Positions 3,913 to 64,000 of a stretch of 64,000 nucleotides of DNA are shown piece by piece (positions within the stretch are counted from its first letter, which is position 1; each line of letters opens with the position of its first letter). The notes beneath the pieces are model-generated. The model saw only the letters and a program-made list of their open reading frames with translations, did not search any database and was not told the origin of the DNA. Where the stretch lies: the NCBI GenBank assembly GCA_012838795.1, contig DUOO01000056.1:84119-148118 (forward strand). Direction: 5' to 3'. Origin of the DNA: Clostridiaceae bacterium. GTDB lineage: Bacteria > Bacillota > Clostridia > Saccharofermentanales > DTU023. A program made the position numbers and the translations under genes.

Positions 3913-5073
3913 CTATCCGATCCAAACCCAATCTTGCCAGCCGGACTCATCAATGTTTTCCGGTGTAATGGCTTCCGGTTGCGGTAGTTCGTAGACTTCA
4001 GGTAACTCTTCGCCAAGAACCAATGCTCTGTACATAGCGTCTGTCGCCTGATAACCTAAAACAACGGGATCTTGCAGAACTTCTGCCAACCATTGTTCAT
4101 TACCTTCTGATAGCCAGGTTAAAACGTCTTTGTCACCGGCAATACCGATGAATTTGATTTCATCTCTGCCATTAGCTACTGATGCATTGTAAGCACCGAC
4201 AACCAAAGCATCGTTGTGTCCGCATACTACATCGATTGTATCTTCTCTTTGTAAAATGTTTTCCATCAAAGTTTGTGCTGAGTCACGGTTCGCTGCGCCT
4301 GTATCACCTTCTTCAATAATCGTTGCATTAGGATATTTTGCCAATATTGTTTCTGCAAAGCCGTTGTAACGATCTTGAGTTACTTGACCCGAAGCCGGTG
4401 ATGTAATGAACAAGCAGACAGGATCATCTTTGCCCAATGTATCAAGGTAATCTACTGCAACTTCACCTGCTTTAACACCAAGAGCCTTCATATCATGACC
4501 GACAAATGTTGACCATACGATATCTTCTTCTGATGCAGGATCTTGCATATAGTCACCGATAACAAAAGGAATACCTTGTGAAGTATATTCTTTCATTAAA
4601 GGAATTGCTGAAGATGCATCTGCCGGGAACAAGATAATTCCGTTGGAGCCTGATGCAACAAGATTTTCAATGTTATTTAACATTGTCTGTACATCTGAGC
4701 TTGAATCTTCAAATGTAAATGTGAAGTTTACACCATTCGCCTCGCCATGATCATCCATCCAATTATGGCAACCTTCAATCGCTCCTTGGAACCAGGTATA
4801 AGCTGTTAATTCAAACAATGAAACACCGATCTTATAATCTTTTGTTTCAGCTGCAGGTTCTTCCGCTTTTTCTTCATCTTCTGCAGGTTCCTCAGCTTTT
4901 TCCTCTGCTTTTTCTTCTTTTTCTTCTTTTACATCTTCTTTTTCTTCTTTTGCAGGTTCTTCTGCTGATTTATCATCTTTTTTATCAGCGTCTTCCTTCT
5001 TGTCGCCACCGCATGCTACCAGACCGAAGATCATTACAGCAACCAGCAATAGTGTCAATATTCTCTTTTTCAT
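3913..5073 (-). CDS. Sugar ABC transporter substrate-binding lipoprotein with a long acidic K/E/A-rich linker
   Basis: 386 aa. Signal peptide plus lipobox LVACGG, then about 60 aa of KE-rich low complexity, then a periplasmic-binding-protein type I fold (RbsB-like). Confidence 0.85.
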   Translation of the reverse strand: MKKRILTLLLVAVMIFGLVACGGDKKEDADKKDDKSAEEPAKEEKEDVKEEKEEKAEEKAEEPAEDEEKAEEPAAETKDYKIGVSLFELTAYTWFQGAIEGCHNWMDDHGEANGVNFTFTFEDSSSDVQTMLNNIENLVASGSNGIILFPADASSAIPLMKEYTSQGIPFVIGDYMQDPASEEDIVWSTFVGHDMKALGVKAGEVAVDYLDTLGKDDPVCLFITSPASGQVTQDRYNGFAETILAKYPNATIIEEGDTGAANRDSAQTLMENILQREDTIDVVCGHNDALVVGAYNASVANGRDEIKFIGIAGDKDVLTWLSEGNEQWLAEVLQDPVVLGYQATDAMYRALVLGEELPEVYELPQPEAITPENIDESGWQDWVWIG

Positions 5074-11502: not shown

Positions 11503-11711
11503 TTCTAGTTTTTTTAAAAAGTATTATACTGAAATATATTGAACAAACTGAGAAAATACAAATTAAGAATTCAGAAAATCTACAGATGTTTTCACTAAAT
11601 AATTCTTAAAAATCTCAAAATCAGAACATTTGTTAACAAATAGACAATAATGTCTACCTGGTACAAACTTCTACAGACAAGAAATTATGAATGGCAAGGA
11701 GAAAGGAAAAT

Positions 11712-12788
11712 ATGAAAGTTAAATTACAAAAACACTTCTTTGAAACCAAAGAACAAACTATTCTGGAAACAAATAGCTTTACCGCATCGATATTTAAATA
11801 CAGCAGCGGTATTGAAGCTGTGAAATTACAAAACGAAATTGGCTATATCATAGTACTTCCTTATAACGGGCAAATGATCTGGGAGGCTTTCTTTTACGGA
11901 AACTCAATAAAAATGGAAACACCATTTCCTGAACCTGTAAAAAGCGAATTATTCGGCGGAACCTACGGTTGTTATCTGATGCACTGCGGTATGAATGCAA
12001 TGGGTGTACCGAAAGAAACCGATAATCACTCTCCACACGGAGATACCCCTTATGCAAACTACAAAAATGCTGAAATTATTACGGGATCAAATTCAAAAGG
12101 CAACTATATTGCTGTTACCGGCGAATATGAACACAATATCGCTTTTGACCAGCATTATATCGCTCAACCACTGGTTAAACTATATGAAAATTCCGGAATG
12201 CTGGAAGTGTCCATGAAAACTAAAAACTTATCACGTAAAAATATGGACTTAATGTATTTATGCCATATTAATAATAAGTTTGTTCCGGACGGTAAAATAT
12301 ATCAGACATTAGATTGGGATGCCGATCACATGGCAATTCAAGAAATTGATCAAACTACTGCTGATCAAAATTTATTAGATTTGTTCAATAGAATTAAAAA
12401 GGATCCGGCATCATCAAATCCTATTTCCGAGGGCGATTACTACGATCCTGAAATAGTGTTTTTCTTAAGAAACATGAAGACAGATCAACAAGACAATGCT
12501 CATTTCCTTTATGTATTGCCTGATCAGTCAGCATATTATACGTATTTTGATACAAAAGTATTAAACCACGGAGTGCGTTGGATTGCTTATCATGAAGATT
12601 GTCATTCAATGGGATTTGTCTTGCCCGCTACTGCAGAATCTGAAGGATATACAGCAGAAAAATCAAAAGGTAATTTACTTTCTTTAGGAACCAACCAGGA
12701 ATTTGAAGCAACTGTTTTCTGTGGTGTTATTCCTCACGAAGAAGCTGATCAAATCATTAAAAAGATTGCAAAAATTAATCAAAAATAA
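11712..12788 (+). CDS. Aldose-1-epimerase-superfamily protein (DUF4432-like)
   Basis: ORF 11691..12788. I prefer ATG 11712 (MKVKLQ...), preceded by AAGGAGAAAGG. HSPHGD... and the beta-sandwich-like sequence style suggest the family. Assignment is from memory. Confidence 0.55.
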   Translation: MKVKLQKHFFETKEQTILETNSFTASIFKYSSGIEAVKLQNEIGYIIVLPYNGQMIWEAFFYGNSIKMETPFPEPVKSELFGGTYGCYLMHCGMNAMGVPKETDNHSPHGDTPYANYKNAEIITGSNSKGNYIAVTGEYEHNIAFDQHYIAQPLVKLYENSGMLEVSMKTKNLSRKNMDLMYLCHINNKFVPDGKIYQTLDWDADHMAIQEIDQTTADQNLLDLFNRIKKDPASSNPISEGDYYDPEIVFFLRNMKTDQQDNAHFLYVLPDQSAYYTYFDTKVLNHGVRWIAYHEDCHSMGFVLPATAESEGYTAEKSKGNLLSLGTNQEFEATVFCGVIPHEEADQIIKKIAKINQK

Positions 12789-12846
12789 TTGTTCATTCGT
12801 GAAATAATTAGAGGTTGTCTCAGAATTCTGAGCTGTGAAAGTTTTA

Positions 12847-13299
12847 CTCCCGGGCGTTAAAGTGTCAAAATTGACGGCTCTGCAAATCTCGGTTTGCGGG
12901 TAATCCCCACAGCCGTAATTTTTGACAGATCCGGCCTTCTCCCGAACGTTAAAGTGTCAAAATTGACGGCTCTGCAAATCTCGGATTGTCGTGAACCCCC
13001 ACAGCCGTAAATTTTGGCACCTCCGGCCTTCTCCCGAACGTTAAAGTGTCAAAATTGATGGCTCTGCAAATCTCGGTTTGCGGGCAACCCCCACAGTCGT
13101 AATTTTTGACAGATCCGGCCTTCTCCCGGGCGTTAAAGTGTCAAAATTGACGGCTCTGCAAATTCCGGATTGCGGGTAATCCCCACAGCCGTAATTTTTG
13201 ACAGATCCGGCCTTCTCCCGAACGTTAAAGTGTCAAAATTGACGGCTCTGCAAATCTCGGTTTGCGGGCAACCCCCACAGTCGCAATTTTTGACAGATC
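12847..13299 (+). repeat. Tandem array of 4.9 copies of a 92-bp structured unit
   Basis: Unit starts at 12847, 12939, 13031, 13123 and 13215. Units are near-identical, each with 20-nt inverted arms and an inner hairpin. Confidence 0.95.
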
Positions 13300-13404
13300 T
13301 GATGTGGATTTTCTTTACACCGCAGCGAAAAGAGAGCAGTTTTCTTGACCGGGAAAATCCTTTGAGATAGCTCTAATTAATAAGCTAATACATTTTGCTA
13401 TGCT

Positions 13405-15300
13405 TCAATTAATTCCATCTAAAATACCAGCAGCCCAATCAACTCCATAATCATAGATAGTCACTTTTCGCGGGCAACCGGATTCATCCCAACCCATCAT
13501 TTCATAATACAATTCGATGTTGGATTCAAATTGTTCCCGATCGAGTTTTTTGCCGGCTAAGGCTCCGGCATTGATTTCTTGTTCAAAGAATCTGTCGGGT
13601 AATTTATCATCTTCTTTGGAAAATCCCTCGCGGTAATTATAAAGGCGGAACAAATGATTCTTTAATTCACCAAGGCGCATAATTTCATATGAAGAAGTTT
13701 CAAATCCGGTAACTTGATGGAATAAATCCGCCATTTCTGCCAAACTATATACTCTGGTCGGAGCTGAAGCAAAAATACACATTCCGAGTGCATCAACTGC
13801 AGACCACAGATTATTCAGCACTTTATAATCATTAACCTTTTCCGGACCGGAATAATGCATTGGGATTCTTTCAAGAATTCCAAGTGTGCGGCTATAGTTC
13901 ATCGTATGCTCCCAGCCTACTTCGGTATCATAATCCCAATCGTGCTCACAAATATCGTAACGCGGACCGACGGCGGCAGTAGCATAACCTAAAGCCAAAT
14001 TTGTCTGCGAGCGACATTCTGTTGAAACAAGTTCATTGCCTTTTACCGTCATAGCATATTCCCGGGAATCATTTCCGATTATTTCGGCCGCCCGGGCTGC
14101 ACCCTCGGCTAAAATATCTCCAAGATCTTGTCGTTTTGCTATCATTTCAGTCAATTTTTCTATATCGACATCCGGACCGAAATTCAGATTGATTCCGCTC
14201 AACATTGATTCATCTAAGGCTTCGTTTTGTTTTGCTTCTTGAGCAAAAGAAATTGTGAAACCGAGTGAATTAGGGTCCATGCCATATTCGTTACATAAAA
14301 CATTGGCTTTAATTATTTTCGCTAAATCACTGTTGCCGATATTCGGACCCAAAGATCCCAGAGCCTCCTGATGCAGACCGCCCATGAATTCATTATCCGA
14401 AGCAGTTGCATAACGTTTAATACAATTATTAGGACAGTAAGGACATGGGGATTCCCCTTTATAAAATTCCGCAAATTTTTCCGGAGTGTATTGATCTGTA
14501 TAATCACATTCATTGGTCTGATAATTATTGACACAAAGGGCTGCATCAATACCATGTGTATGGATCCAGGCACCAAAACCGGGACGATCATATTGCCACA
14601 TCGAAAGTACATTTTCTTGCATCTTTTTTGTAAAGTTTCTCGAGATTTCTTCTAACTGATTCGGAGCATAAACCTCTGGAACATGTCCACCCGTAATGAC
14701 AACAGCTTTTAGGTTTTTTGATCCCATAACCGCGCCCATTCCTGCTCTGGAAGCTTGATGGTTTTGATCGCAAATTATATTCGCAAATCGTACTTTATTC
14801 TCACCGGCAGGTCCGATTGTTGCAATTGATGAATCGGGATAATCCGCTTTAATTTTTTCCACTGTATCACTGACTTTTTGTCCCCAAAGTTCTTCTGCCG
14901 ATATTAATTGCGGAATTTGATTTTCAATTAATAACATCACAGGTTGTTCGGATTTGCCACGAAAAATTATACCGTCATAACCTGATCTTTTTAATGCCAT
15001 GGCAAACGGACCTTCACATCTTGCCTCACCGATACCGCCTGTTGCAGGCGATTTTCCGGTGATCGTAAATCTTGCTAAGCCGGGAGCTTGATGACCGCCT
15101 AAAATACCGTTGAAAAACATCAAATATGCTTCCGGATCAAAAGCATCAATATCTGCCGGAGTTTCTTGAAGCAATTTTGTTACAGCCATTACAGATCCCG
15201 ATCCATATCGACGATATTCAATTTCAGTAGGTTTTTGCTCACTAAACTTCTTGTGCGTTAAATCCACATATAGTATTTTCCCATGGTATCCAAAGTTCAT
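13405..15300 (-). CDS. Aldehyde:ferredoxin oxidoreductase (tungstopterin AOR family)
   Basis: 631 aa. AOR N-terminal domain (GKILYVDLT...). CxxCxxxC cluster motif CPYCPNNC. SD AAGGAG. Confidence 0.9.
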   Translation of the reverse strand: MNFGYHGKILYVDLTHKKFSEQKPTEIEYRRYGSGSVMAVTKLLQETPADIDAFDPEAYLMFFNGILGGHQAPGLARFTITGKSPATGGIGEARCEGPFAMALKRSGYDGIIFRGKSEQPVMLLIENQIPQLISAEELWGQKVSDTVEKIKADYPDSSIATIGPAGENKVRFANIICDQNHQASRAGMGAVMGSKNLKAVVITGGHVPEVYAPNQLEEISRNFTKKMQENVLSMWQYDRPGFGAWIHTHGIDAALCVNNYQTNECDYTDQYTPEKFAEFYKGESPCPYCPNNCIKRYATASDNEFMGGLHQEALGSLGPNIGNSDLAKIIKANVLCNEYGMDPNSLGFTISFAQEAKQNEALDESMLSGINLNFGPDVDIEKLTEMIAKRQDLGDILAEGAARAAEIIGNDSREYAMTVKGNELVSTECRSQTNLALGYATAAVGPRYDICEHDWDYDTEVGWEHTMNYSRTLGILERIPMHYSGPEKVNDYKVLNNLWSAVDALGMCIFASAPTRVYSLAEMADLFHQVTGFETSSYEIMRLGELKNHLFRLYNYREGFSKEDDKLPDRFFEQEINAGALAGKKLDREQFESNIELYYEMMGWDESGCPRKVTIYDYGVDWAAGILDGIN

Positions 15301-20702: not shown

Positions 20703-21485
20703 TTATTCGAAAATGTTACGTGGTCTATTTATAATCCTTTTTGCCACTTCTTTTGCTAATGCCTTATAGCTTCTGGCTCCCTTAGACCATTTATCATGTT
20801 CTTGTATAGGTAACCCAAAACTTGGGGCTTCACTTAATCTGACATTTCGCGGGATTACGGTATTAAAAACTAAATCACTAAAATAATTATTGATTTCATT
20901 TGTAACTTGATGTGATAATTGAGTTCTGGTATCAAACATCGTGACTAAAACTCCCAGCACAAATAATTCAGGATTTAAATTTTCACGGATCATCCCAATT
21001 GTCTCAAGTAATTGACTCAAACCTTCCAAGGCATAATATTCAGCTTGAATTGGTATTATTACAGAATCTGATGCAGTTAGAGCATTAACTGTTAAAAGTC
21101 CTAAAGAGGGCGGACAATCAATAATGATTATTTCATATTCTTGCTTTATTGAGTCTAACGCTTGCTTAAGAATTGTTTCACGTGAAACAATTGAAACTAA
21201 CTCCACTTCAGCACCGGCTAAATCAATGTTTGAAGGTATTAAATCAAGGTTTTTTCTAACATCTTTTAATACTATTTCTTCGATTGGTTTCCGGTTGATA
21301 ATAGTATCATAAATCGTTGCTTCTTGTGCCTTTTTATCAAAACCATAACTTGAAGTTGCATTTCCTTGAGGATCAAGATCTATTAAAAGTGTCTTATTTC
21401 TAATCCTTGCCAGATTATCTGCCAGGTTTACGGCTGTAGTCGTTTTGCCTACACCACCTTTTTGATTTACTATTGAAACAATCAT
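20703..21485 (-). CDS. parA: Chromosome partitioning ATPase ParA/Soj
   Basis: 260 aa. Deviant Walker A NQKGGVGKTT. Confidence 0.92.
   Translation of the reverse strand: MIVSIVNQKGGVGKTTTAVNLADNLARIRNKTLLIDLDPQGNATSSYGFDKKAQEATIYDTIINRKPIEEIVLKDVRKNLDLIPSNIDLAGAEVELVSIVSRETILKQALDSIKQEYEIIIIDCPPSLGLLTVNALTASDSVIIPIQAEYYALEGLSQLLETIGMIRENLNPELFVLGVLVTMFDTRTQLSHQVTNEINNYFSDLVFNTVIPRNVRLSEAPSFGLPIQEHDKWSKGARSYKALAKEVAKRIINRPRNIFE
21174..21189. promoter_or_regulatory. parS site, perfect TGTTTCACGTGAAACA, inside the parA coding sequence
   Basis: Exact 16-bp match to the Bacillota parS consensus. Confidence 0.85.
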
Positions 21486-21759: not shown

Positions 21760-21775
21760 TGTTTCACGTGAAACA
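21760..21775. promoter_or_regulatory. parS site, perfect TGTTTCACGTGAAACA, in the gyrB-parA spacer
   Basis: Exact 16-bp consensus, abutting the gyrB terminator hairpin. Confidence 0.85.
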
Positions 21776-36203: not shown

Positions 36204-36452
36204 ATGCAATATTCAAATATTACTAATTTTCGCAAAAATATTTATAAGCTTCTGGAAGAAACACTTAAATATAATGAACCTCTTCAAATCAGTACGAAAG
36301 ACGGCAATGCGATTGTTTTGAGCGAAGATGATTATAACGGTCTGATAGAAACACTATATTTAACATCTGTACCCGGAATGAAAGAAATCATAAAAGACGG
36401 TCTGACGACCTCCATTTCAGATTGTGTATCGGAAGACGAGGTCGAGTGGTAG
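36204..36452 (+). CDS. yefM: Type II antitoxin, Phd/YefM family
   Basis: 82 aa. FRKNIYKLLEET...ISTKDGNAIVLSEDDYNGLIETLYL. SD GGAGGAGGG. Confidence 0.88.
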   Translation: MQYSNITNFRKNIYKLLEETLKYNEPLQISTKDGNAIVLSEDDYNGLIETLYLTSVPGMKEIIKDGLTTSISDCVSEDEVEW

Positions 36453-36716
36453 ATGTATAAGATAATCTATACCAAAAGATCGATCAAAGATATTCCTAAA
36501 TTAAAGAGAGCAAAACTTGATACAAAAGCAAAAAATCTAATTTCTATTATTAAAAACAATCCTTATCAAAAACCTCCGTCGTATGAAAAATTAAAAGGTG
36601 ACTTACAAGGAGCTTATTCAAGACGAACCAACCACCAACATAGGCTTGTATATCAAATTTTGGAAGAAGAAAAAATCATAAAAATAATTAGCTTATGGAC
36701 TCATTATGAAATTTGA
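36453..36716 (+). CDS. yoeB: Type II toxin, Txe/YoeB family mRNA interferase
   Basis: 87 aa. The ATG abuts the yefM stop. ...LKGDLQGAYSRRTNHQHRLVYQI...ISLWTHYE. Confidence 0.88.
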   Translation: MYKIIYTKRSIKDIPKLKRAKLDTKAKNLISIIKNNPYQKPPSYEKLKGDLQGAYSRRTNHQHRLVYQILEEEKIIKIISLWTHYEI

Positions 36717-37622: not shown

Positions 37623-38957
<1,335 letters not shown>

Positions 38958-39203: not shown

Positions 39204-40463
39204 ATGAGCGAAACAAAATTATCTCAATATCAGGAAACATTACAATCCATAAAAGAGATTGCTGAAGAGTTAGGTTATGAAGAAGCCGACTATATAACAT
39301 TATTAAGTCCGGAAAGAGAAGTTACCGTATCTTTACCGGTGACTATGGATGATGGTAAGGTTCGCGTTTTTCAAGGCTATAGGATTCAAGATAATAGTGC
39401 ACGCGGACCATATAAAGGCGGTATACGCTATCATCCGGAAGTTAAAATTGAAGAAGTTCGTGATTTAGCTTTGTTAATGAGCTTGAAATGTTCTGTTGCC
39501 GACATTCCTTATGGCGGAGCCAAAGGCGGTATCACGGTAGATCCGCGTGAGTTATCCGAAACGGAATTAGAGCGTTTGACTCGAAAATATGCAGAAAAAA
39601 TTTATCCGGTCATCGGAGCAGAAATTGATATACCTGCTCCTGACGTGAATACCAATGCTAAAATCATGGGCTGGTTCAGAGATGAATATAGTAAAATAGC
39701 CGGAGTTCAAGTTCCGGGAATCGTTACCGGGAAGCCGATTGAAGTAGGCGGATCATTGGGCAGAAATGAAGCAACGGGTCTTGGTGTTTCTACAATAACT
39801 CATGTTTTTGCTCAAAATCAAAAATTTGTACCCGAAGAGACAAGGGTTGTTGTTCAGGGTACAGGCAATGTGGGCTTGATCACTGCTCAATTCCTGGCAA
39901 AAGAAGGATATAAAATTGTTGCTTTGTCCAATGTGGCGGGTGCTGTCTACAATGCAAACGGTTTTGATGTTTCAGTTCTCAATTTAACGAATGGCGATCA
40001 AAAAAATTATGACTTATTAACAGCACAAGAAGGCTCGGAAGAAATTCCGATGAATGAATTTTTATCAGTGGAATGTGATATTTTGATTCCTGCTGCCATG
40101 CAAAATCAAATCCGTGCCGATAATGCAGATCAAATAAAAGCTAAAATTGTGATTGAAGCCGCCAATGCTCCTGTTTCAGCTGAAGGAGAGGTTATACTGA
40201 TCAAAAGAGACATTAAAGTTCTGCCCGATATTCTATGTAATGCGGGCGGTGTTATTTGCTCATATTTTGAATGGGTACAAAATATGCAACATTTCAGCTG
40301 GACCCTTGAAGAAGTCAATACAAGATTGATTGCAAAAATGAAATCGGCTTTTGACGCGGTACTTGCAATGCAAGCTGAGAAAAACTGCACTTATCGTCAA
40401 GCAGCAATGTTGATTGCAGTTGACCGGATTATCAAAGCAACCAAGTCAAAAGGCAAGTATTAA
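39204..40463 (+). CDS. gdh: Glutamate dehydrogenase (Glu/Leu/Phe/Val dehydrogenase family)
   Basis: GGAKGG catalytic-Lys motif (PYGGAKGGI), Rossmann GTGNVG. I place the start at ATG 39204 (MSETKL...) after GGGGGT. The track's 25 extra residues look spurious. Confidence 0.9.
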   Translation: MSETKLSQYQETLQSIKEIAEELGYEEADYITLLSPEREVTVSLPVTMDDGKVRVFQGYRIQDNSARGPYKGGIRYHPEVKIEEVRDLALLMSLKCSVADIPYGGAKGGITVDPRELSETELERLTRKYAEKIYPVIGAEIDIPAPDVNTNAKIMGWFRDEYSKIAGVQVPGIVTGKPIEVGGSLGRNEATGLGVSTITHVFAQNQKFVPEETRVVVQGTGNVGLITAQFLAKEGYKIVALSNVAGAVYNANGFDVSVLNLTNGDQKNYDLLTAQEGSEEIPMNEFLSVECDILIPAAMQNQIRADNADQIKAKIVIEAANAPVSAEGEVILIKRDIKVLPDILCNAGGVICSYFEWVQNMQHFSWTLEEVNTRLIAKMKSAFDAVLAMQAEKNCTYRQAAMLIAVDRIIKATKSKGKY

Positions 40464-40464
40464 G

Positions 40465-40701
40465 CCTGTTTCTGCTCAGAATTCGACGCTGTGCAAATTT
40501 TCGTTTGCAGGCCTCCGAATTTTGAGCAATTTTCATATTATTACGCCCGTTTTTGCTCAGAATTCAACGCTGAGCGAATTTATTTCTGCATGTCTCCGAA
40601 AAGTGAGCAGTTTTCATGGCAGGAATCCCTGTTTCTGCTCAGAATTTTGAGCTGTGTAGATTTTTGCTTGCACAGCGATGAAAAGTGAGCAGTTTTCATG
40701 G
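40465..40701 (+). repeat. Tandem array of 3 copies of a ~82-bp structured unit, related to the 92-bp family
   Basis: The TGCTCAG anchor occurs at 40473, 40554 and 40636. Shared tail CCGAWWWWGTGAGCAGTTTTCAT. Inner hairpin TGCAAA...TTTGCA. Confidence 0.9.
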
Positions 40702-41001
40702 TTGTGGTATCGGTTCTTGCACTAACCCATTTTTTAAGATTTCAAAAAAGCAAGATGAGAACATTTAAAAAGAAGAGCAAAAAAGAAGAACAAAAAAGAA
40801 AGCAATAAGACAGAACAATATGGAAGAACAACAAGGACGAGCAATAAGGAAAAGCAATACGGGAATCTAAAAATGTAATATAAGATACCAAATAATTATT
40901 GAATACGCTCAGATGCTGAATATGATATTAAATATGCAATAATGTGTAAGAGAGCTTATGAGAATAATGAATTTTAAAATATATAAAACGGGAGGTACAC
41001 C

Positions 41002-55031: not shown

Positions 55032-55122
55032 GGAGGGATGGTCGAGCTGGCTGAAGGCACCGGTCTTGAAAACCGGCAAGGGCGTGAGTCCTTCGTGGGT
55101 TCAAATCCCACTCCCTCCGCCA
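55032..55122 (+). tRNA. tRNA-Ser (anticodon TGA), long variable arm, encoded CCA
   Basis: GGAGGGA acceptor pairs with TCCCTCC. Anticodon loop CTTGAAA. T-arm GGGTTCAAATCCC. Ends GCCA. Confidence 0.92.
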
Positions 55123-55214: not shown

Positions 55215-55304
55215 GGAGAAATACCCAAGTGGTGAAGGGGACGGTTTGCTAAACCGTTAGCAGGGGCGACTCTGGCGTGGGTTCAAATCCCACTTTCTCC
55301 GCCA
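55215..55304 (+). tRNA. tRNA-Ser (anticodon GCT), long variable arm, encoded CCA
   Basis: GGAGAAA acceptor pairs with TTTCTCC. Anticodon loop TTGCTAA between ACGGT and ACCGT. T-arm GGGTTCAAATCCC. Confidence 0.92.
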
Positions 55305-56951: not shown

Positions 56952-57539
56952 TTAGCTGTTTTTGTTTTGTACTGCACCGATAATGTAGAGAATCGGGATT
57001 ACCAATCCTAACAATAAAGAAAGAACCGGGAAAGGATATCCGCCGACCGCTGTCAAGATTGAGCTGAGCACGCTGATTGCTGCGACTGCTATACCCCAAA
57101 TGAGCAGCTTACCGGCTTTAGCTTTATTGTTATTATGTTTTATTCCGGAAATTCCGGCAATCAATTGGACGATTGAGCCGACACCGCTGAGAGCAAAGGC
57201 AGCATATAATACTCCTGTAGAAATGCCCAAATAACTGGCACCAAAGCTAAAATACGGATTAGATGCAAGAGCGGCGATACCGGTAATACCGATGATTGTA
57301 GCTATAATTCCGATAGCGGCACCAATGATCATTAAGATACCGACTACTTTGAGCATAGTAGCACCTTTCAGCTTAGGAGCTTGTTGATATTGTTGTTGGT
57401 ATTGCGGCTGATACTGCTGCTGATATTGTTGCTGTTGCGGTTGATATTGTTGCTGTTGCGGTTGATATTGTTGTTGTTGCGGTTGATACTGCTGTTGTTG
57501 ATATTGTTGTTGTGGATTGTAATTATTATTTTGATCCAT
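56952..57539 (-). CDS. Membrane protein with a Q/Y-rich heptad-repeat N-terminus and about 4 TM helices
   Basis: 195 aa. SD GGAGGT. The N-terminal 55 aa are almost only Q, Y and P. No family recognised. Confidence 0.6.
   Translation of the reverse strand: MDQNNNYNPQQQYQQQQYQPQQQQYQPQQQQYQPQQQQYQQQYQPQYQQQYQQAPKLKGATMLKVVGILMIIGAAIGIIATIIGITGIAALASNPYFSFGASYLGISTGVLYAAFALSGVGSIVQLIAGISGIKHNNNKAKAGKLLIWGIAVAAISVLSSILTAVGGYPFPVLSLLLGLVIPILYIIGAVQNKNS
57398..57510 (-). repeat. About 4-5 tandem 21-bp repeats encoding QQQQYQP heptads
   Basis: GTTGATATTGTTGCTGTTGCG units occur at 57440 and 57461, with diverged flanking copies. Confidence 0.85.
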
Positions 57540-63357: not shown

Positions 63358-64000
63358 ATGAGTATTAAAAAAATGATCGCTCTTTTACTGGTCATAGTCA
63401 TGACTTTTGCTTTGGCAGCTTGCGGCTCCAAAGATAAAGAGTCTGATGACGAAAAAGCTGATGACGTAAAGACTGATGACGTGAAGTCTGATGACGAAAA
63501 GGCTGATGACAAAAAGGCTGATGAAGAGCCCGCAGATGAAGAACCTGCAGATGAAGAGCCTGCAGATGAAACGCCCGATGAGGTTAAGAAGACCATCTAT
63601 GTTCTGGCTCCTAACCCTGACCACGGCTGGACCGGTGCTATCGGTGTTTTTGCTGAGGCTAAAGTTGACGAGTTGAACAACGAAGGAAAGTATGATGTTC
63701 GCTTCCAGACTTTTGCTTCTGCTGATGACCAAATTAAGCAGATAGAAGACATTATCGCCAACGATCCCGGTGACGGTTCCATCGGCGTTGCAATGTTGCC
63801 TGCCAGTCCCGACGTTGAGAATGCCATCCAGCAACTGGCTGATGCAAACATCCCATACACCGCAGCTGACCGTATCATTCCATCCGTTGCCGATACTGCT
63901 GTTTCCAACATCAAGTATGATAACGTTGAAATCGGTGCTGCCGCTGCTTCCTACCTGGTTGCTAACGGCATGGTTGAAGGTGACAAGGTTGTCTGTATCG
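63358..64000 (+). CDS. Sugar ABC substrate-binding lipoprotein with an acidic linker (partial, continues past the window)
   Basis: Absent from the ORF track because it runs off the edge. SD AGGAGG then MSIKKMIALLLVIVMTFALAACGSKDKESDDEKADD...EEPADEEPADEEPADETPDEVKKTIYVLAPNPDHGW... Confidence 0.85.
   Translation, partial: MSIKKMIALLLVIVMTFALAACGSKDKESDDEKADDVKTDDVKSDDEKADDKKADEEPADEEPADEEPADETPDEVKKTIYVLAPNPDHGWTGAIGVFAEAKVDELNNEGKYDVRFQTFASADDQIKQIEDIIANDPGDGSIGVAMLPASPDVENAIQQLADANIPYTAADRIIPSVADTAVSNIKYDNVEIGAAAASYLVANGMVEGDKVVCI

Follow-up and report, generated by a model that had tools for sequence, protein, structure and literature searches.

In pneumococci, BOX elements are built from two end modules, boxA and boxC, which bracket a variable number of tandem boxB modules (boxB(n)), and they change by slipped-strand mispairing or unequal crossover (PMC3049150). 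The locus described here, in a 64-kb stretch of clostridial DNA that we call the window, resembles BOX in having two end modules around a tandem internal module whose copy number varies between strains. Both elements are intergenic and contain predicted stem-loops, and the BOX forms without the internal module (A1C1) are comparable to an intact 82-bp unit of the family found in the window (PMC3049150). Unlike in BOX, the internal 92-bp unit of the window element is a relative of the unit that brackets it and the end modules pair weakly; the two systems also differ in phylum lineage and in their sizes. The boxB module is shorter than the 92-bp unit, and BOX is far more abundant in the pneumococcal genome than the window family, of which 64 kb contained two loci and public data very few. 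By architecture we would describe the window element as an analogue of BOX and not as a BOX member, homology being unexpected in a distant lineage of Clostridia.

A further point of reference is offered by the MIRU-VNTR loci of Mycobacterium tuberculosis, tandem repeats of 46-101 bp at 41 loci (PMC3914561). They match the window family in the size class of the unit, in occupying several unlinked loci and in a copy number that varies between near-identical strains, but they are not long hairpins as the window units are. Several unit-length classes occur within the one MIRU family, as in the window family, and MIRUs lie within operons, where they overlap short ORFs. With its intergenic position, units of tens of bp, several loci and polymorphic copy number, the window family belongs with the VNTRs or minisatellites of MIRU-like kind, a descriptive class and not a homology family.

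The REP and BIME arrays of enterobacteria and pseudomonads resemble the window units in being palindromic and extragenic, in lying in 3' regions and often between convergent genes, and in their capacity to be tandem. They are mobilised by RAYT transposases, and roles in mRNA stabilisation and termination have been proposed for them. Individual REPs measure 20-40 nt, carry a conserved GTAG-type head and alternate in orientation, whereas the window units are direct repeats of 82-92 bp and the window holds no RAYT gene; an assignment to REP/BIME with RAYT was rejected on these grounds. SPRITE and other stem-loop families combine a long stem with a U-rich tract, are enriched 3' of coding sequences or between convergent genes, and are confined to one lineage (PMC3049150; PMC2267715). 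The window family shares with SPRITE the succession of long stem and U-rich tract, the position 3' of genes and the restriction to a lineage, but its U tract is 4 nt long in the 82-bp unit and none follows the 92-bp stem. To our knowledge, neither tandem arrays nor nesting is on record for SPRITE.

The window comes from the metagenome-assembled genome (MAG) of an uncultured member of the Clostridia from a biogas reactor, to which exact protein matches assign it under the label 'Clostridiaceae bacterium' and whose near relatives are labelled Saccharofermentanales, and represents housekeeping DNA of the oriC region, with dnaA, dnaN, recF, gyrB and parAB. The genes dnaA, dnaN, recF and gyrB are found at 21.8-28.6 kb, the window thus covering the chromosomal origin region, and two perfect canonical parS sites (TGTTTCACGTGAAACA) adjoin parAB at 21174-21189 and 21760-21775. 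Two adjoining long tRNA genes (87-88 nt) lie on the + strand at 55032-55119 and 55215-55301 and are the only Rfam matches of the window. Short tandem repeats that look in-frame (periods of 6-45 bp) occur within ORFs at 57381-57517, 63443-63571 and 4839-4961; the ORFs 56952-57539 and 63385-63834, which bear such repeats, are without Pfam match, and ORFs of this kind probably encode low-complexity linker or repeat proteins.

Between a DUF4432-family gene (11691-12788, + strand) and a convergent gene for an aldehyde:ferredoxin oxidoreductase (AFOR; 13405-15300, - strand), a gap of 616 bp is occupied by a single composite, non-coding hairpin-repeat element, which therefore lies in the 3' region of the first gene and also 3' of the second. 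At its centre stands a tandem array of 4.9 units of 92 bp (12847-13299, + strand; Tandem Repeats Finder (TRF), 89% matches), whose variants follow one another in the order a b c d e. Each unit forms a long imperfect hairpin, GTGTCAAAATTGACGGCTCTG ... CACAGCCGTAATTTTTGACA, with no U run after the stem and with fold energies that show no consistent strand bias. An ORF called at 13170-13370 was dismissed as spurious. Neither 82 nor 92 bp is a multiple of 3, so that the reading frame changes from unit to unit. Every sequence compared in this study is a short-read metagenome assembly, and the order and number of units within arrays could therefore be partly mis-assembled.

The 82-bp type is best seen in the second array of the window, where three units, A, B and C, cover 40466-40710 on the + strand in our own phasing (TRF calls an 81/82-bp repeat at 40458-40646). 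This array begins where the glutamate dehydrogenase gene, gdh (39204-40463, + strand), has its stop codon, and the gene that comes after it is of the pyridine-nucleotide disulfide oxidoreductase family, with Pyr_redox domains. On the strand of the upstream gene, the 82-bp unit reads as a stem CUGCUCA...UGAGCAG followed by UUUUCAU. For each 82-bp and each 92-bp unit the predicted fold is a single long imperfect hairpin, and the gdh locus folds at -96.5 kcal/mol on the + strand vs -75 kcal/mol on the other. All three units are 100% identical in six other contigs. From the 82-bp array to the next gene, A-rich short tandem repeats with periods of 13 and 39 bp (GAAGAGCAATAAG-like) extend over 40767-40859; this stretch is absent from the orthologous gap of the two related species introduced below, species B and the species whose gdh is 81% identical.

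Several features of this neighbourhood vary between strains. A YefM/YoeB-type toxin-antitoxin pair at ~36204-36716 of the window is also present in L024, and in L025 a 136-bp remnant is found at the site, flanked on both sides by sequence 82-87% identical to the window; its presence or absence is a strain-level insertion/deletion polymorphism. Over 6.8 kb compared between the window and L025, 79 of 79 mismatches fall within 0.9 kb of the enolase gene (37629-38510), and L026 shows 8 mismatches in 38550-38607. These clusters look like imported recombination tracts. The idea of extra conservation of the gdh array in L025, a 98.8% strain, was dropped, because with all 79 mismatches clustered in the enolase gene an unchanged array is uninformative.

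Comparison of the 92-bp array's borders with the gdh array revealed that the DUF4432-AFOR element is nested: a degenerate 82-bp-type unit is split by the 92-bp array into ~30 nt on its left and ~52 nt on its right. The left flank (12817-12846, + strand; alignment z 5.7) corresponds to the 5' part of the unit, at family positions ~10-37, starts 28 nt past the DUF4432 stop codon and contains the perfect palindrome CTCAGAATTCTGAG. The right flank (13299-13353, + strand; z 7.4) corresponds to the 3' part, at family positions ~27-78, and ends in GAAAAGAGAGCAGTTTTC. In local alignment against the 82-bp array, the left flank scores 19, with shuffled sequences at 9.9 +/- 1.6, and the right flank 24.5, with shuffles at 11.1 +/- 1.8; in either case 0 of 1000 shuffles reach the observed score. 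Tiles of the same length taken elsewhere in the window attain maxima of 14.5 and 17.5, respectively. A profile of six 82-bp units used with nhmmer placed 12819-12846 on positions 10-37 (E 3e-3) and 13303-13353 on positions 27-78 (E 5e-5). Exact-pattern searches of the window point the same way: CTCAGAATTYTGAGCTGTG occurs at 12819 and in the 40.6-kb array only (0.02 expected), and GAAAAGWGAGCAGTTTTC at 13327 and in units B and C only (0.15 expected). The initial annotation of this stretch had matched the left flank to unit C at 23 of 29 positions, a figure with which a position-by-position recount agrees, and had taken the right flank for the remainder of an 82-bp-type unit; both assignments stand, and a similarity no better than expected by chance for AT-rich DNA, which it had named as one outcome that would speak against its reading, is at odds with the shuffles and the tiles alike.

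Since the left flank represents positions 10-37 and the right flank positions 27-78, family positions 27-37 occur to the left as well as to the right of the array, which bears out the earlier observation of a segment common to the two sides. About 11-17 family positions are common to both sides. The two copies of this junction segment read GAGCTG-TGAAAGTTTT and GATCTGATGTGGATTTT and are identical at ~11 of 17 positions by hand count, so they do not constitute a fresh target-site duplication. At the left junction, the alignment to the 82-bp array shows no significant extension into the first 92-bp unit; at the right junction homology appears continuous, with AATTTTTGACAGATCTG set against AATTTTGAGCTG of unit C. 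The split unit's own arms are poorly complementary. In the predicted fold of the whole gap, the sequences immediately beyond the two half-units are paired, so that the element is enclosed. An inverted repeat, TAATTAGAGGTTGTCTCA / TGAGATAGCTCTAATTA, can be drawn outside the element between 12805-12822 and 13363-13379, but it is weak and marginal, 105 of 2000 shuffles scoring equally (p ~0.05).

The two unit types are themselves related. Across the best-matching stretch, the 92-bp consensus TCAAAATTGACGGCTCTGCAAATCTCGGTTTGCGGGC is identical to TCAGAATTCGACGCTGTGCAAATTTTCGTTTGCAGGC of unit A at 31 of 38 positions, with z values of 7.8-8.9, 0 of 500 shuffles reaching the score and one register in every comparison. 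Against the unit from the other species the register is unchanged, at a z of about 3. Both types share the 5' arm and the apical hairpin; their 3' halves differ in sequence, each being complementary to its own 5' arm. By these alignments the 92-bp unit is a diverged relative of the 82-bp unit, not a foreign type. Two readings had been put forward in the initial annotation, the insertion of one repeat type into a copy of the other and the growth of the array from one ancestral unit. The nesting itself is upheld, while the idea that an unrelated type inserted is weakened by the resemblance to unit A; growth of the array by slipped or unequal recombination is supported by strain comparisons.

These comparisons provide a close view of how the array changes. 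In L001 (ENA ERZ27280799) the locus carries 7 units vs 5 in the window, with 0 mismatches in 13,096 bp of flanking sequence and, within the array, one additional SNP relative to the window. The unit strings are a b c d e in the window and a b f g c h e in L001, where f is nearly a copy of a, and g of b, each with 3 differences from its model. A third assembly, L002, reads ..b b c d e, that is, at least 5 units. The split 82-bp flanks are identical in L001, L002 and the other contigs of this locus. A single unequal crossover or slippage between two b-type units would explain the window and L001 alleles, and the 5 vs 7 units between identical flanks show the 92-bp array changing length in situ, apparently by slipped-strand or unequal recombination between units. 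Copy number also differs at a locus behind a phosphoenolpyruvate carboxykinase (PEPCK) gene, with 2 units in L006 vs 3 in L014.

The distribution of the family was explored with a strict search for the 82-bp pattern in 185,579 species genomes and in JGI metagenomes. Among the species genomes it was found in 1 place, L006 (MAG JAAYRL01), where a GTP-dependent PEPCK gene has 2 units immediately behind its stop codon. The 3 units of L014, a JGI metagenome contig, stand at the same PEPCK locus and form the only true metagenome locus found; the pattern matches L011-L013 look like chance and were set aside. Altogether the repeat family is seen in two sister species only, in every case close behind a stop codon (that of gdh, PEPCK or DUF4432), and at all three loci the 82-bp units have the orientation of the upstream gene. 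Within the window, neither nhmmer nor a covariance model of the 82-bp unit run with filters off detected further members. For the 92-bp type, an exact 26-mer had 0 matches in JGI metagenomes and 0 in viral contigs, and the whole DUF4432-AFOR gap had no BLAST match among plasmids and phages. The DUF4432-AFOR junction is kept in no relative, whether traced through DUF4432 (59-71% aa identity; L007, L008) or through AFOR (86% nt identity; L015-L023), and family repeats are absent from all of these; L007 and L008 have plain terminator hairpins instead.

The 3' gap of gdh, by contrast, can be compared across three species: it holds 3 x 82 bp in the window, 2 x 92 bp in species B and no array in a species with 81% gdh identity. 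Species B is the MAG JAAYRL01, to which L028 and L006 were assigned together by their consecutive NLJ accessions, and its gdh is 90% identical to that of the window at the amino acid level. At the gdh 3' site of L028 (5267-5450), 2 units recur at exactly 92 bp. The arms of this array form almost perfect inverted repeats, and the array as a whole has a predicted fold of nested hairpins (-67 kcal/mol, z -6.9). In species B, the units show a strong match to unit C on the opposite strand (z 8.9; nhmmer E 0.09) and, on the same strand, a match to the window's own 92-bp unit with z 5.8 by shuffling, for which nhmmer finds nothing. Homology between the window 92-bp unit and the array of L028 is thus suggestive, and the shared period together with the z 5.8 match hints that the 92-bp type predates the DUF4432 locus, which would favour placement from elsewhere. 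In L029-L034, with gdh at 81% aa identity, the gdh site is empty, and the comparison of filled with empty gdh sites shows no target-site duplication. Because the gdh site differs in this way among three species, we conclude that turnover is much quicker in the arrays than in the intergenic DNA around them, and that the arrays have been restructured or replaced at a fixed position and are dispensable. A separate tandem array of 81 bp was noticed in L029 (42-719, minus strand; also in L030-L034), ~100 nt past a canonical enolase terminator. It varies from 3.0 to 8.4 copies between samples, each unit consists of a long imperfect hairpin and a T6 behind it, and gene callers put ORFs without Pfam match over it; in sequence, its units do not significantly resemble either the 82- or the 92-bp type.

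Other known classes of repeat or structured element were tried and rejected. A CRISPR array does not fit a whole 92-bp period repeated at 89% identity with no unique spacer. Nor does an integron attC array, as there are no cassettes and no integrase, or a type III toxin-antitoxin RNA of the ToxI kind, as no toxin lies downstream and the next genes are the convergent AFOR and the Pyr_redox gene. A consensus scan for intrinsic terminators (a GC-rich short stem-loop with at least 5 T) gave 0 in both gaps, the 82-bp unit being a long stem with UUUU only. The reading as a centromere-like or ParB-binding array near oriC was rejected because the two perfect canonical parS sites are at 21174 and 21760. 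When the window was scanned with Rfam covariance models, only the two tRNAs passed the gathering threshold; the 92-bp region gave nothing at E<=1 and the 82-bp region one chance-level miRNA match. Assigning a strand from G-U pairs and fold energies was abandoned, the signal being suggestive for the 82-bp array alone and inconsistent for the 92-bp units.

Overall, the locus is a composite, BOX-like hairpin minisatellite, resized by slippage or unequal recombination. As for the origin of the nesting, we favour, with a probability of about 0.45, a one-off illegitimate recombination or template switch between members of the family, followed by amplification in place. A 92-type unit would have entered an 82-type unit in one such event, mediated by hairpins or microhomology and not by cut-and-paste transposition, and once inside it would have been amplified where it lay. 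The element would have no essential role, and its hairpins, placed in a 3' untranslated region, might form a barrier to transcription or protect RNA 3' ends. This account has to accommodate that partial units with overlapping family positions are also expected from an insertion with a duplicated target, that the 92-bp array of L028 favours placement from elsewhere over a local origin, and that at least three unlinked loci with one empty orthologous site imply dispersal, for which some mechanism must exist. Dispersal of arrays at the level of the family may have taken place, given that two species carry such arrays at three unlinked loci and that a third has an empty gdh site. A purely local history is possible but rather unlikely: at least two tandem 82-bp-type units would have had their interior homogenised into a 92-bp variant by concerted evolution, and the flanks would be eroded edge units. 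The homology of the 92-bp unit to unit A fits this well, as do the continuous homology of the right junction to unit C, the ~11/17 identity of the junction copies, as if from two different old units, and the mosaic units, which indicate ongoing exchange. The edges, however, are partial (28 and 51 nt) instead of whole units, the left-flank alignment stops short of a significant extension into the first 92-bp unit, and a 92-bp-period array at another locus of another species suggests a non-local origin.

Positions 27-37 on both sides of the array are also what one would expect if a MITE-like 92-bp unit had transposed into an 82-bp unit, with a target duplication of 11-17 bp that has since decayed, and had then been amplified. 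Small repeats inserting into one another are documented in pneumococci (PMC3049150), and the unlinked loci, the gdh site that is empty in L029-L034 and the weak outer inverted repeat agree with such a nesting. We nevertheless regard it as unlikely, since the junction copies are only ~11/17 identical, the 4.9 units are non-integral, the array boundaries of the window and of L028 fall at different unit phases, the outer inverted repeat lacks significance (p ~0.05), and empty and filled gdh sites show no target-site duplication. Measured against what characterises a MITE, the element offers that marginal inverted repeat and a pair of diverged junction copies. Solo 92-bp units, which the initial annotation had proposed to look for together with target-site duplications, were encountered neither in the window nor in JGI metagenomes, viral contigs, phages or plasmids, and the 64-kb window contains no transposase, recombinase or RAYT gene and no Y1_Tnp match; the mobility it had read into the short duplicated junction gains no direct support from these results. 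It appears very unlikely that the element is kept for a selected function, whether as structured RNAs in tandem, serving as a terminator or stabiliser module or as a processed small-RNA array, or as an array of protein-binding palindromes. Hairpin potential is kept despite sequence differences, several stem substitutions yield G-U pairs on the + strand, the gdh locus folds better on that strand, and at each of the three loci the 82-bp units run in the direction of the upstream gene and have UUUU behind their stem. Yet one species lacks any array at the gdh site and another has a rearranged one there, whose match to the 82-bp unit is inverted, copy number is unstable, there is no Rfam family match, a single compensatory pair is seen among five sequences, the 92-bp units lack a consistent strand bias in fold energy, the canonical parS sites are located elsewhere in the window, and no toxin or partner gene lies downstream. 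At most, the position at stop codons, the common orientation and the U run of the 82-bp units hint at a side effect that would resemble termination or protect 3' ends. That the array structure or the difference of 5 vs 7 units arose by short-read mis-assembly is hardly credible: contigs L002-L005 do break inside or at the edge of the array, but three independent assemblies agree on the flanks, the junctions and the terminal order c-d-e, L001 with a one-SNP variant of d, and the unit variants carry enough differences for long k-mers to put them in order. Quite unlikely, finally, is the more far-reaching possibility of an undescribed self-propagating family of palindromic tandem repeats in Saccharofermentanales-like Clostridia, which would seed specifically at the 3' ends of genes with high expression (gdh, PEPCK), whose modules would swap, invert and nest, driven by a hairpin-specific enzyme or by a template switch coupled to transcription or replication, and which might tune transcript 3' ends.

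As it appears so far, the element is an ordinary feature of the genome, probably neutral or selfish. It adds a clostridial member to the small interspersed hairpin repeats exemplified by BOX, REP, MIRU and SPRITE, and extends the composite A-B(n)-C architecture, known from streptococci, to a distant uncultured lineage. As the sole difference across 13 kb between co-occurring strains, the 92-bp array offers a ready strain marker for this biogas organism; short-read assemblies, moreover, break at this point. Should the units turn out to influence the 3' ends of transcripts, or to be dispersed through a process directed by hairpins, the family would provide a small, tractable system for studying how such repeats originate.
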